From Eledone cirrhosa (lineage: Eukaryota): a DNA stretch of 64,000 nt. Positions 3,502 to 62,973 of this stretch are shown piece after piece. The stretch is from contig OZ024743.1 of the NCBI GenBank assembly GCA_964016885.1, positions 202,802,001 to 202,866,000 of the forward strand, in the 5' to 3' direction. The stretch's first letter is position 1; each line of letters begins with the position of its first letter. The position numbers and the translations under genes are program-made. Below the pieces are notes generated by a model, which saw only the letters and a list, made by a program, of their open reading frames with translations, was not told the origin of the DNA and did no database searches.

Positions 3502-3670
3502 TAACAAAGAATTGTGGTAAGGAACCAGATGGACCATAACGCACCAGAGTACTCAATACTTAGGATAGTATAGTGGGAAATAGGAAAAAGTATGAACCCG
3601 ACGACAGAGCTCAAGCCGTTTCGACGGATATTTCTGAGTCCAGAATTAGCCGTCGGGGTCATACATTTTC
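3502..3670 (-). mobile_element. Short fold-back element, family B (copy 1 of 6)
   Basis: Homologous to 62780-62973. Contains a hairpin with an internal deletion between repeated GCCGTCG and is flanked by (TA)n on both sides. Confidence 0.85.
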
Positions 3671-4399
3671 ATATATATATATATATATATATATATATAT
3701 ATATATATATATATATATATATATATATATATATATATATATATATATATATATATATATATATACATATATATATATATATATATATACATCATTTCTA
3801 CTCCCAATCAGCATAATTACCCACACAAAAAATCAATTAGACACGGCTATAAGAATAAAAGGCACCTATGAAGAAACAGTAAATAAATACGCCACAGGAG
3901 CGTCTTCGCGGCCAACCGCTATAGGATATTTACCCAACATTTCAACAGCACGTGGAAATTATTTAAATATAGGTACATATATAAACACACGCACGCACCC
4001 ACACACACACACACACACACACACACACACACACACACACGCACACGCACACACACACACACACACACACACACACACACACACACATATATATATAAAT
4101 ATATATATATATATATATGTATACATGCATATATATATATATATATATATATGTATACATATAAATATATATATATACATATATATATATATATATGTAT
4201 ACATATATATATATATATACATACATATATATATATATATATATATATATATATATATATATATATATATATATATATATACGTATATATATATATATAT
4301 GTATATATATATATACATATATATGTATATATACATATATATATATATACGTATATATATATATATATATGTATGTATATATATATATATATATAGTGT

Positions 4400-4680
4400 G
4401 TCAGGTCACCAGCTGGTGCTACTTGTAACATGTATCCCAGTACAACCTGTCTCATGGTCGGGTCGTTGGCGACTAAACTGGCAGCCCCACCAAGGTTTCT
4501 TGGTGAGGAGGGTGACTTTGGACATCCTGCAGGACTAAAAACAAAACCTGTCAAAGGGCAAAGAAGCTCTTAAGAGTCAATGGCCATCCAAAATCACCGG
4601 GAGAGATGACCCCTTAGCCTTTGTCAAGGCAGAATTCTAGGAGAAGGAAAACTCTGATATAACACCTGCAACCCTGATGG
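4400..4680 (+). mobile_element. Possible RTE-type LINE 5'UTR-like fragment
   Basis: GC-richer block after (TA)n containing TCTAGGAGAAGGAAAACTCTGAT, which I recall as typical of RTE 5'UTRs. GGTCGTTG can pair with CAATGGCC about 120 nt downstream. No ORF follows. Confidence 0.3.
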
Positions 4681-5972
4681 TATCCAATGATGTTGACTTG
4701 TTCTTCTTTTTGGTAAATATCATCTTGGTTAAGAGAGTGGGACTGGCTTTGTGCAGTGCCTTTGCTCACTATAAAAGCTTCACGGCACAGGCATTGCTTT
4801 ATATCTGGAGATCTCTCTGCACTTGTCGTCACATGGTACCATGGGTCCAGCACTATGTGTCAATAATTGTCACAAGTGTAGTGTTTATACCAGAGTTTTC
4901 AAATCGCTGGCTGGAGTAAAAAGTGACACTCGTTCAGCGCATCGATAGGGGTTCTCCTACATGGATATAAAGTAGTGGCCGTACTCGAAAACGAGTTGGC
5001 AGCCACCATATATAGTGTAGGAGGTGAGTTTTATTGTAGTACAATAAAGCAATGATATGTTGATTTAAAACTGCACTATCCACAAGTGTTTTTTAGCCTT
5101 CATATCATGTTCTCCTGTTTTATCTGATGAAAACACAAATATTATTGCATGATGATGTTTGTATTTGAAATGCGCATAATAAAATATATGGAACTCCTTT
5201 AACCATCTTTTGATCTTATATTATATATATATATATATATATATATATATATATATATATATATATATATGAGTGTGTGTGCGTGTGCGTGTGTGTGTAA
5301 ATGTATCTATGTATGTATATATACATATATAGATATGTATTATATATAGATGCGCATTATGTAAACTTGCGGCGTTGGATGGAATACTAACTGCATTGCA
5401 ACATCCTCTGTCAGGTTTTATATCCAATTGGCTATAAACCAAGTAATATATCACCATCATTTTTCTTTAATCATTTCTATCCATACATATTCGCACGTCT
5501 AGAATTGTGTTCCATACAGGAATATTATTACGAATTATCTACGTGTGAGACAATTGAAAAAGCTAGATGATTTATAGTATTATAAAGCAGAAAAAAAACC
5601 TATTACAATAGACGTTGAGCAGTTATAAATCATGATAGTTGTCATTTGTTAGAAACCATTTACTATATACCATTCAGAAGAGAATGTGTAGGGTTCTAAA
5701 TGAATATTGAAGTATGAAAGATTGTAAATTGTTCATATACTTTTAATGATAAGAGTAGGTATGTTTTCATTGCGATGGCGTTCGACACCATGTTGCCGGA
5801 GGTTCAGTCATACTGCGTAACACTTTGGGAGAGTGCTCTCTACTATCGCTACCGGTCAAGCAATATTCCTACAAAAATGCAGAAGACTTTTGTACATATA
5901 TATAAATATATACCTTTATATATATATAAATATATACATTTATATGTATATAAATATATACATTTATATCAA

Positions 5973-6135
5973 ATATTAAAAAAATAATGGATAAAACAAT
6001 GAAACAGTTCCTTATATTAAACAAAAAAAGTTCATTATTTAACGATCGTTTCTAGGACATATATGTGTTAGAATTGGCATGCATATTCAACAGATCTATG
6101 TATAAAATTATACAAAATTATACAAACTATCAAAT
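5973..6135 (-). repeat. Dispersed repeat (second copy ~12292-12480), probable PLE pLTR remnant
   Basis: The two copies are near identical. The minus strand has GAAA-CGATCG-TT/TA (palindromic stem III-like), but the upstream core is degenerate. Confidence 0.6.
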
Positions 6136-6299
6136 TTAATATACATACCAACATATGCCGTCTTCACTATTGGACACTACCGTAAACTCTTGGTAGATTT
6201 ATCTACATATACATTTATATATATTTATATATATATATATATATATATATATATATATATATATATATATATATATATATATATATATATATATATATT

Positions 6300-60510: not shown

Positions 60511-61828
60511 GTCTGTGCTTTCGTGAAAACAGAACGAAATTAAGGGTTTGAAAAAAAGAAAAATTGTTTAGGTTGTAGTTAAAACTACATATTTTCTAAA
60601 AGAGCATATGAGTAGCTGCAAATAGCTCCAGTGTATAGCAGGGTCTTGTTTCATGGACTTTGGATGATTGAAAAATATATATTACCGATAAGTATGATTG
60701 AAATTCAGAATCTGTAAAGTAACGTATTAAGAAATTTAGTTCAATGCTCTTGCTGTTATTTCCTAACATTCAGCTCTGTATCAAATTAAGTACATTTTCT
60801 CTAAGCAAATGATTACTGACACTAAGATAGCTCGGAATTAAGGGGAAACATTGAATGCAAATATGCTATTTCTTGAGGGCAGTAAGAAAGATCAATTGTT
60901 ATGAGTAGTAGTAGCAACTTGTTATATATTTCATTTCATGGCAAGACAAAATAAAATGTATTGTTGGAAGCGGATGTATATTTAGTTAAAGGTATCAAAC
61001 CCGTAATTGAAGGAACAATAATGGAAAGAAAAGAAAAGAAATATCGTTAGATTATGCCAAACCTAAAACATTTTGGCTAACTGACAAACTGGAATGTGAG
61101 TGAAAGAGAATATGAAAACTATATCAGATATGAGAGAAACATTTATTTTTAATAACCTCATAGATGCAGTGAAATTGAAGACACCAAAGTACAGATCTGA
61201 CTTCATCAGTGAAGTTAACAAGCTTTTCTCGACAATTTAGATTGCAGGTATTTGATTTAACGTGAACAATTCGTTACGAGAACGTAAAATAGGCAAAATC
61301 AAAGAAAAAAATGCAGACTTACGCAGTAGCATACATTGCACAGACACATGGTCACATATACTCTCACATAAACATGTAAAATTACATGCATATATATATA
61401 TATATATATATATATATATATATACACATATATATATATACACATATATATATATATATACACATATATATATATACACACATATATATATATATATATA
61501 TACGCACAAACACATATGTCTATATATATATATATATGTACTGACATCCAACATATTTTGGACAATTAACATTAACTATATTGTTCTGAAGAACATAAAT
61601 CGTGTGATTACACATTCGTAATTTTTCCATTTCTTCAAAGAGTATTTTCGTTCTCTGTCAGTTTAATTTTATTACGTTTTTTTTTATAGATATTGGTTTT
61701 GTAATTGGAATGTTTATGTCATGAATTCGTATGTTCTTAAATGTGTTTTTCACTTTAAATCTTGATATAAGTACATGCACACACGTAAACCTAAACACAT
61801 GGCTGTTTATATAAATACAGAACTCAAG

Positions 61829-62057
61829 GTTCAAACTGGGGAGTGGAGATATCCATTTATGGTCAATTGGAAAGAGTTAGGAAGCCACACTAAATCTTAA
61901 AATGTTGCTCATTACAAGCAATATGACAATACGACAAGTATGTTCAAACTGGGGAGTGGAGATATCCATTTATGGTCAATTGGAAAGAGTTAGGAAGCCA
62001 CACTAAATCTTAAAATGTTGCTCATTACAAGCAATATGACAATACGACAAGTATGTT
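61829..62057. repeat. Essentially perfect 113-bp tandem duplication
   Basis: GTTCAAACTGGGGAGTGG...ACGACAAGTAT starts at 61829 and again at 61942. Confidence 0.9.
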
Positions 62058-62214
62058 TTTTACTCAGTGAAAACGTAGAATCCCTTTATATTGACATACA
62101 TATATACGTATATATATATATATATATATATATATATATATATATATATATATATATATATATATATATATATATACACGTATATATATTTATATATATA
62201 TTTATTTATTTATT

Positions 62215-62720
62215 TATTTATTTAAATAACAGATTACAGTTTAAGCAAAGAATCGCTGCTTTCACCCTTAACGGGATCTTCTGAATTATATATTTGATAT
62301 ACATTTATCCTTATGGAGCCCTCTTTGGATTTTAGTCTCCCCATTTATTATTATTATTATATATATATATTTATATATATACGTATATATACACGCATAT
62401 ATATATATATATCATATATATATATGTATATATATACATATATATATATATATTATATATATATATATATATATATATATATATATATATATATATATAT
62501 ATATATATATATATATATATATATATATATATGTATATATATATATATTTATATATATAATATATATATTTATTAAAATAAGAGATTAAAGTTTAAGCAA
62601 AGAATCGCTGCTTTCACCCTTAAGATCCTGTTAAGTTATCTACGGTTCTTATATATTTGATATATATTTATCCTTATCGAGACTTCTTTGGATTTTAGTC
62701 TTCAAATTTATTATTATTAC
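62215..62720 (-). repeat. Two ~140-bp direct copies separated by (TA)n, with a degenerate HHR-like motif
   Basis: ~62215-62360 vs ~62565-62720. The minus strand reads CAGAAGA-U-CCC(GUUAA)GGG-U-GAAA. Confidence 0.6.
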
Positions 62721-62779
62721 TATAATATATATATATATATATATATATATATATATATATATATATATATATATATATA

Positions 62780-62973
62780 TAACGAAGGAAATGTGGTAAG
62801 GAACCAGGTGGACCATAACGCACCAAAGTACTCAATACTTAGGGTAGTAGAGTGGGTAATAGGAACGAGTAAGATCCCGATGGCTGAGCTCAAGCCGTTT
62901 CGACGGCTAATTCAGTCCAGAATTGGCCGTCGAAACGGCTTGAGCTCAGCCATCGGGATCCTACTCGTTCCTA
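62780..62973 (-). mobile_element. Short fold-back element, family B
   Basis: 54-bp arms at 62860-62913 and 62920-62973, loop AGTCCA, 2 mismatches. TA-rich flanks. Confidence 0.9.

Follow-up and report, generated by a model that had tools for sequence, protein, structure and literature searches.

The window analysed here, a 64,000-nucleotide (64-kb) stretch of the Eledone cirrhosa genome (assembly GCA_964016885.1, contig OZ024743.1, positions 202,802,001 to 202,866,000), contains six short hairpin-shaped elements of 169-208 bp, which we term minis. Judged by sequence, each mini joins two copies of the 3' end of a Penelope-like element (PLE) of the Hydra clade, head to head and within (TA)n, and the minis probably formed when two target-primed complementary DNAs (cDNAs) ran off the 5' end of an RNA with a capped start at unit position 3404-3405 and were joined head to head. 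Unit positions refer throughout to one real copy of the parent element, numbered so as to end at the tail. All six elements described in an initial annotation of the window were recovered as homologous copies (Table 1), and a seventh was not found elsewhere in the 64-kb window. The origin from a PLE and its pseudo-long-terminal-repeat (pseudo-LTR) proposed in that annotation was likewise borne out, the minis being the 3' end of a parent with a reverse transcriptase (RT) plus GIY-YIG-type open reading frame (ORF).

Pattern searches covering the 3.0-Gb genome found exact matches to a 24-nt mini centre at 15,842 loci, a lower bound for the number of hairpins, with 0 matches to the reversed-pattern control. 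A second exact pattern detected 14,914 hairpins and a third 50,552 arm ends, each with a control of 0. Local density in the window is high, with 6 tail-arm junctions in 64 kb versus 3 in 190 kb of other stretches. The hairpin of the 62.9-kb copy has a predicted fold energy of -105.9 kcal/mol (z = -20.7), which was equalled by 0 of 200 shuffles.

Minis pair two copies of one 3' end

Each mini holds the parental 3' end twice, once ending with the tail at unit 3543 (the tailed half) and once at unit 3464 (the tailless half), and both copies break off within loop II of the parental hammerhead ribozyme, near unit 3404-3410. About 80 unique bases lead into a 55-nt arm, which is repeated in inverted form beyond a short centre, and the whole is sited in (TA)n. 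Long insertions of the family share this plan, consisting of two 5'-truncated copies placed head to head with ends at 3543 and 3464. Among 26 junctions from 27 loci picked for long paired insertions, 22 paired a tailed with a tailless half and 4 were of other types. Exceptions to the one-tail rule are a mini with tail sequence at both sides (L014) and a long insertion without any tail (L137). The farther 5' reach in the 22 long pairs belonged to the tailless half in 12 cases and to the tailed half in 8, with 2 equal, and the commonest mini centre occurs in both orientations, with the tail on the left in 22/30 and on the right in 8/30. Fold-back of a tail-started cDNA cannot produce a tailless half that is the longer of the two, nor can a tailless cDNA give rise to a tail. 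On our analysis, extension of both target strands from two internal RT starts fits these data better than self-priming. A parvovirus-like flip/flop (rolling hairpin), prompted by the two loop orientations, was dropped as a candidate, given that the long insertions show an either-side pattern arising from two independent halves.

The turning points of the minis, which the initial annotation had placed at the same hairpin in all copies, proved to be clustered and not identical: 34 different junctions were present in 36 unbiased paired minis, which argues for independent origins. Arm divergence, assessed over 50 nt in 114 minis (29 of them from a search biased to the 62.8-kb copy), was 1.95 within a copy, 4.81 between copies and 1.00 to the nearest other copy. 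Subfamily sites were concordant in both arms in 65/65 and 84/84 cases at two sites, indicating that both halves come from one source subfamily, and rare arm variants were mirrored 3 times as against 106 occurrences in one arm only. The mirrored variants are hence subfamily variants and not copy-specific ones, as had been thought. Mirrored haplotypes are also present in long ends (67/75), and the arm haplotype of the 40-kb copy is the commonest among long parents (53/114 long ends). The idea that a hairpin resembling a miniature inverted-repeat transposable element (MITE) is regenerated at each insertion does not agree with these results: with junctions nearly all distinct and arm haplotypes matching those of long parents, the minis look like dead-end by-products.

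Most half-ends stop at a fixed position

Stop sites were determined in an unbiased sample of 100 half-ends, listed by the arm-end search and refetched. Of these, 73 stopped at unit 3400-3419 (mode 3405, with 18; 3404, with 8), 18 ran through the ribozyme and 9 lay at 3385-3398, several of the latter being inflated by pooled references. Since halves that start 80 nt apart stop at one place, the stop is set by position and not by length. Summed contig depth, a crude measure, drops 6- and 9-fold at the stop site in two public runs (X1 and X4), the first of which possibly comes from the sample that was assembled.

Several features at the stop site are those expected of an RNA 5' end. In most parents the sequence of the cDNA end, ...TTCTGGACT, is followed by A, but in 1,453 of 6,590 half-ends the next base is a pyrimidine. 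The first 100 pyrimidines after TTCTGGACT comprised 89 C and 11 T, and one-base centres were C 32 times and T twice (both hand counts). In the subfamily whose listed parents have C at this position in only 3/100, one-base centres were C in 16 cases and T in 0. Copying of the cap G by RT is known to leave an extra C, and the extra C seen here is what copying a cap G would leave. The stop is also followed by A-runs of up to 17 nt. Template jumps were identified in 10 of the 46 tail-ORF loci examined (of 227), where a segment starting at unit 3392-3407 is joined, in the same direction, to sequence ending at unrelated positions 61-819, and several of these segments then run back to about 3405. Within loop II, TATTTAA/TATTTAT occurs at -29 to -34 in 35/40 distinct loops, and TTAGTC or TCAGTC occurs at the stop, again in 35/40; judged by the consensus sequences, these motifs are TATA-like and initiator-like. 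In D. virilis, too, the Penelope transcript begins inside the upstream pseudo-LTR (PMC2377424). We also weighed a splice junction at TTTAG and dropped it, because the stops include the AG (mode 3405) and only 2/100 lie at 3406.

The parent element and its hammerhead ribozyme

The nearest long parent lies 15 kb past the right end of the window (L063:5151-8633, corresponding to G000:C4:202881151-202884633) and consists, in order, of a 762-nt inverted tailless copy, a 5'-truncated RT plus GIY-YIG-type ORF, a 1.2-kb 3' untranslated region (UTR), an intact hammerhead/arm, the tail and (TA)n. A complete unit of 3,543 bp was obtained from a tandem array on C1, within which the tail continues directly into the 5' UTR and ORF, and intact ORFs are 717-719 aa long; exact matches to tail-ORF junctions number 227 genome-wide. 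Unfolded parents of the sort envisaged in the initial annotation do exist, with a UUGANAA core 5' of the stem and an RT plus GIY-YIG-type ORF upstream. At locus L127 (G000:C1, about 91489170-91492740), some 60 tandem copies of a 55-bp piece of the C-terminal part of the parent ORF sit at the inversion junction of this big array, possibly as a product of repeated RT slippage.

The 719-aa ORF contains FDIESYY and LYRDDG, followed by VIYQC...AYIG. It also presents RLRWRTFF (RWR rather than RWK), HSDKTGN (DKT in place of DKG), a linker CNCPDRSIC (CxCx5C), and CNLCSEE (CxxC) and NKK...CKH (CxH) around conserved E and N residues, while CCHH is absent (a single Cys in the GIY/YIG region). The marks defined for the Hydra clade in the available parts of PMC8557442 are RWK-type, DKT, CxCx5C, no CCHH, and CxxC/CxH. 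The insertion plan of that clade, with a (TA)n target, an inverted copy and a tail at one side, is also found here. A total of 2,027 relatives of the ORF were retrieved, the best of them mostly 38-43% identical, and the top relative (P0001) has a GIY-YIG match; a PDB sequence search with the ORF returned nothing useful. By these motif marks, and by its likeness by eye to published alignment excerpts, we conclude that the parent is a Hydra-clade PLE; it represents a new family, the commonest product of which appears to be a dead-end hairpin.

The parental 3' end reads stem I (ACCCC), core TTGANAA, stem II, a 37-39-nt loop, GAAA, stem III, GTC and GGGGT, from which we predict a complete type I hammerhead with a U3-A8 core and a GUC cut site, cutting at unit 3444/3445. 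The stem followed by GAAA in the minis had been likened to stem II of a pseudo-LTR hammerhead, and the complete ribozyme of the parent confirms it as the 3' half of that stem. The accompanying caveat that no NUH triplet follows was wrong, for after GAAA comes stem III (five pairs, six in some subfamilies) and then GUC. The TTGANAA core was present in 53 of 58 distinct hammerhead copies, a partly pattern-selected sample, with all four bases occurring at N7, and a U3-A8 core is a described variant of PLE hammerheads (bioRxiv 10.64898/2026.07.22.740005, PMC4209133). In the minimum free energy (MFE) fold of one copy all three stems form. Intact-ribozyme ends number 2,109 and 1,388 genome-wide for two subfamily patterns, and in an Rfam search of the window hammerheads were absent among the 150 matches listed of 256. 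The sequence following the tail end is predicted to form a bulged hairpin (z = -2.1); beyond the arm end a comparable hairpin can be sketched by eye, although the MFE fold is a different one.

A small fraction of halves ends elsewhere in the ribozyme. By hand count, the predicted cut, at the G that follows GTC, is the exact start of 6/100 tailed halves, and 0 start at the two preceding positions. In 4 of these 6 cases both halves end at the cut, the pattern used being blind to shorter halves, and loci L314, L315 and L317 also contain segments beginning there. Together these ends suggest that some RNAs are cut by the predicted ribozyme, forming a minor second class of 5' ends.

Proposed origin of the minis

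In the scheme that we consider probable, the 37-39-nt loop II of the upstream pseudo-LTR would contain a promoter with TATA-like and initiator-like motifs, which would start transcription at the A of TTAGTC or at the G after it. With its 5' end inside loop II, such an RNA would carry an upstream ribozyme copy without the core, unable to cut. The RT-endonuclease would then nick both strands of a (TA)n tract, and cDNA synthesis would be initiated internally at two places, some 60 and 140 nt away from the cap. Both cDNAs would reach the cap, often adding C opposite it and a few A's, and their ends would be joined into a hairpin by end-joining or microhomology. The available text of PMC11167929 reports two internal RT starts and cleavage of both strands for a Poseidon PLE, and predicts a dimer; following it, we read the tail as the stretch between two RT start sites. 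Full-length copies would arise only when the short cDNA transfers to the RNA 3' end. There the complete downstream hammerhead would cut at unit 3444/3445, making 41 nt terminally redundant and available for the transfer, and a second pass of transfer would create a new upstream pseudo-LTR with its promoter. That these steps make up an LTR-like PLE cycle built from a ribozyme, in which the loop II promoter disables the 5' ribozyme, the 3' cut makes the redundancy and strong-stop cDNAs transfer, is a tentative extension, in our estimate slightly more apt to fail than to hold. Within such a cycle, the tens of thousands of hairpins might be failed transfers that map the cap and the ribozyme cut with single-base precision, a possibility put forward just as guardedly. 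Minis contain neither the promoter half nor ORF-side sequence and are thus likely dead ends.

Several observations weigh against this scheme or parts of it. When the C excess was tested on individual loci, the difference was not significant (C in 3/7 versus 1/11, p = 0.25), and a search for an extra G after AA did not show a cap signal. Short fold-back, or a subfamily with C at unit 3403, can account for some of the extra C's. Many halves extend 1-5 nt past 3404 with parent-like A/AAAT, so that starts may be heterogeneous. The hammerhead has an MFE z-score of about 0, an Rfam search of the parental 3' end did not match the ribozyme, and a Pfam search of the parent ORF gave no match. Long copies could also arise from read-through tandem RNAs instead of transfer. 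For Poseidon PAc in vitro, the available text of PMC11167929 describes hammerhead cleavage as dispensable, with no RNA reads ending at the cut.

The genomic copies alone provide base-level predictions, namely a cap at 3404-3405, a cut at 3444/3445, RT starts at 3464 and 3543 and a 41-nt redundancy, and intact young ORFs are present with which these can be tested. The minis are ordinary in kind but unusually informative on mechanism: their turning point likely records the start of the parent RNA and suggests a testable means by which these relatives of telomerase may rebuild their ends. For annotation, it matters that an abundant MITE-looking repeat can be dead-end cDNA. The at least 15,000 near-perfect 55-bp hairpins are also plausible candidate substrates of ADAR, and hyper-editing tracks double-stranded RNA in octopus-type genomes according to the available portion of PMC5625713.

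Alternative explanations

The strongest competitor retains the joining of two cDNAs and attributes the stop to a roadblock in a longer RNA, which might be the tertiary fold of the ribozyme, a protein bound there, or the A of TTTAG acting as the branch point of a lariat. The stop sits within the ribozyme, TTTTCATTTAG looks like splice-signal sequence, the promoter region of the D. virilis Penelope has an intron (PMC2377424), and 18/100 halves pass the site. A roadblock, however, leaves unexplained both the C excess at 3404 and the TATA-like box at -29/-31, and the stops fall in an AU-rich loop, with the stem already passed. Moreover, in a small and imprecise sample of a second Hydra family from the window, the hairpins turn some 50-80 nt upstream of the ribozyme core of that family, from which it follows that the turn is not tied to stem II. 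We regard a roadblock as unlikely.

The initial annotation had proposed that stem II stalls the RT and that a single cDNA folds back, self-primes and regenerates the hairpin at each insertion. Near-perfect arms with the same subfamily alleles (65/65, 84/84) would be accounted for in this way, short fold-back insertions do occur at some junctions, and self-priming has been proposed for palindromic PLE junctions (PMC3846280, available text). Allele concordance, however, is equally expected from two cDNAs of one source RNA. The stops lie in the loop, about 17 nt beyond the stem base, and the natural 5' strand of stem II served as the fold-back in none of the copies listed (50 loci from one search, 100 half-ends from another). 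The tailless half is the longer one in 12/22 long insertions and in the majority (22/30) of minis that have the commonest loop, which contradicts fold-back as the general route; it could survive only as a minor one, and as the explanation of the minis it is improbable.

It is about as improbable that the minis are a self-propagating non-autonomous family copied from mini masters by the PLE protein. Their copy number is high, one junction recurs with 696 exact matches of a 37-mer, and an arm haplotype frequent among minis (27) is rare among the long ends sampled (1), though the sample is biased. Against this, 36 copies presented 34 distinct junctions, 67/75 mirrored haplotypes occur in long ends too, and the recurrent junction is found in both orientations and both subfamilies, with microhomology. 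Minis also lack the core, the TATA-like box and ORF-side sequence.

Descent from a DNA-transposon MITE or a Helitron/Helentron, suggested by short, non-coding, hairpin-shaped and TA-flanked elements, can practically be dismissed, as the minis derive from the 3' end of a PLE that encodes an RT (the 40-kb copy being 98-100% identical to it) and the ends are asymmetric with a one-sided tail, matching long PLE insertions. Any target-site duplication is unreadable in (TA)n. In place of the symmetric terminal inverted repeats, uniform structure and transposase partner of a MITE, the minis have a one-sided tail, 34 junctions in 36 copies and an RT-encoding parent.

Comparison with known systems

In LTR retroelements, minus-strand strong-stop DNA is primed near the RNA 5' end, is short because it runs off that end, and undergoes a first strand transfer, and redundancy of the R region regenerates the promoter. 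The scheme proposed here differs in that priming of the cDNA would take place on the target, at two sites, and would involve neither a tRNA primer nor an integrase, and in that the redundancy would derive from a ribozyme cut.

Among PLEs, the available parts of PMC8557442 describe Hydra-clade elements, Hydra-1_Obim included, that resemble the parent in having a single RT plus GIY-YIG-type ORF with RW(R), DKT, CxCx5C, no CCHH and CxxC/CxH, a (TA)n target, a pseudo-LTR hammerhead, an inverted 5'-truncated copy and a tail at one end. Hydra-1_Obim differs in length (2,507 bp versus 3,543 bp) and in its hammerhead (CUGAAGA with an 8-nt loop versus U3-A8 with a 37-39-nt loop II). The same parts of that source quote a tail of 30-40 bp for PLEs, compared with about 80 nt in the parent, and make no mention of a dominant fixed-length hairpin class. 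In Poseidon PAc, similarly, the tail is delimited by two internal RT starts that lie immediately 3' of the hammerhead, and both target strands are cut and extended; a multi-copy mRNA is assumed there, and RNA 5' end mapping, run-off hairpins and strand transfer are not described in the available text (PMC11167929). The palindromic junctions of rotifer Penelope elements are also alike, with head-to-head inverted pseudo-LTRs, an optional tail and microhomology joins. They are explained by self-priming on an antisense template in the available text of PMC3846280, whereas the present data fit two sense-templated cDNAs.

Animal non-LTR retrozymes, as far as the available parts of bioRxiv 10.64898/2026.07.22.740005 and PMC4209133 describe them, share with the minis a non-coding nature, derivation from PLE pseudo-LTRs and a relation to hammerheads. 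They are, however, head-to-tail tandems with complete ribozymes, whereas the minis are single head-to-head pairs without a catalytic core; a classification of the minis as non-LTR retrozymes was rejected on account of the head-to-head arrangement and the absence of the core in 6/6. One tandem array of the same PLE family (L310; G000:C2:356029979-356032212) does look like a retrozyme born from this PLE. Its eight 299-bp units each comprise the tail, the first 122 nt of the PLE unit and a complete hammerhead with loop II shortened by deletion, and the 5'-most unit begins at unit 3403.

Earlier publications have described inverted PLE ends tailed on one side, two RT starts, and Hydra elements in octopus. 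Run-off hairpins, a promoter in a hammerhead loop and strand transfer for PLEs were not found in the literature, in a search that excluded subscription papers and Repbase.

Copies and other repeats in the window

The six copies differ in preservation (Table 1). Their location in TA tracts, noted in the initial annotation, applies to five of the six as direct flanking by (TA)n, and the copy at 12651 has a few other bases before its TA tracts. The reported succession of the stem and GAAAC is intact in 3/6 only: it is deleted in the copy at 3502, whose tailless half has an internal deletion of GAAAC/stem III, lacks the 3' strand of the stem in that at 39949 and is diverged in that at 12651. The copy at 39949 is the one 98-100% identical to a young parent subfamily, and that at 48353 carries a short insertion of local template at its junction. 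The hammerhead core is absent from both strands in all six.

Table 1. Window coordinates of the six minis and of the component parts of mini 6.
Feature	Position	Strand	Description
Mini 1	3502..3670		tailed half spans unit 3408-3543 (minus strand); tailless half begins at unit 3404
Mini 2	12651..12853		diverged old copy, ~80% to the reference parent; longer centre
Mini 3	31437..31621		tailed half reaches unit 3408; tailless half begins at unit 3404
Mini 4	39949..40125		tailed half to unit 3408; tailless half from unit 3422
Mini 5	48353..48560		opposite orientation: tail right, element sense on +
Mini 6	62780..62973		complete mini element
PLE tail of mini 6	62780..62859	-	~80 nt, unit ~3465-3543
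Tailed arm of mini 6	62860..62913	-	hammerhead 3' half: stem II 3' strand, GAAA, stem III, GUC cut site (predicted), stem I 3' strand
Tailless arm of mini 6	62910..62973	+	from the A of AGTCC, unit 3404 (putative transcription start), to the proximal RT start

The second Hydra-type family, found at 6290-9620, 19829-20332 and 54792-55299, has an endonuclease 40% identical to that of the parent, a CUGAUGA/CUGAAGA hammerhead, inverted ends and a tail of about 140 nt. Fragments of another PLE-like RT/GIY-YIG ORF were recognized by eye at 10524-12291 (minus), with no Pfam match. Inverted pairs around TA tracts occur in other repeat families as well (44728-44878 / 45023-45174; 55699-55987 / 56292-56580), and short repeats of other families with hammerhead-like GAAA boxes were seen by eye at 32152-32228, 40376-40449 and 49925-50021. 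Two broken elements resembling long interspersed elements (LINE-like), which we take to be RTE-like and L1/Tx1-like, lie at 15558-18323 (minus) and 23000-26417 (plus), with an RVT_1 match that clears the cut-off in the first element only, the match in the second falling short of it. A many-copy repeat resembling a tRNA-derived short interspersed element (SINE) occupies 37705-39090, 47711-47928, 52233-52436 and 56935-58798 and is presumably a cephalopod SINE, and the open frame at 60089-60478 looks like a possible Helitron helicase fragment.

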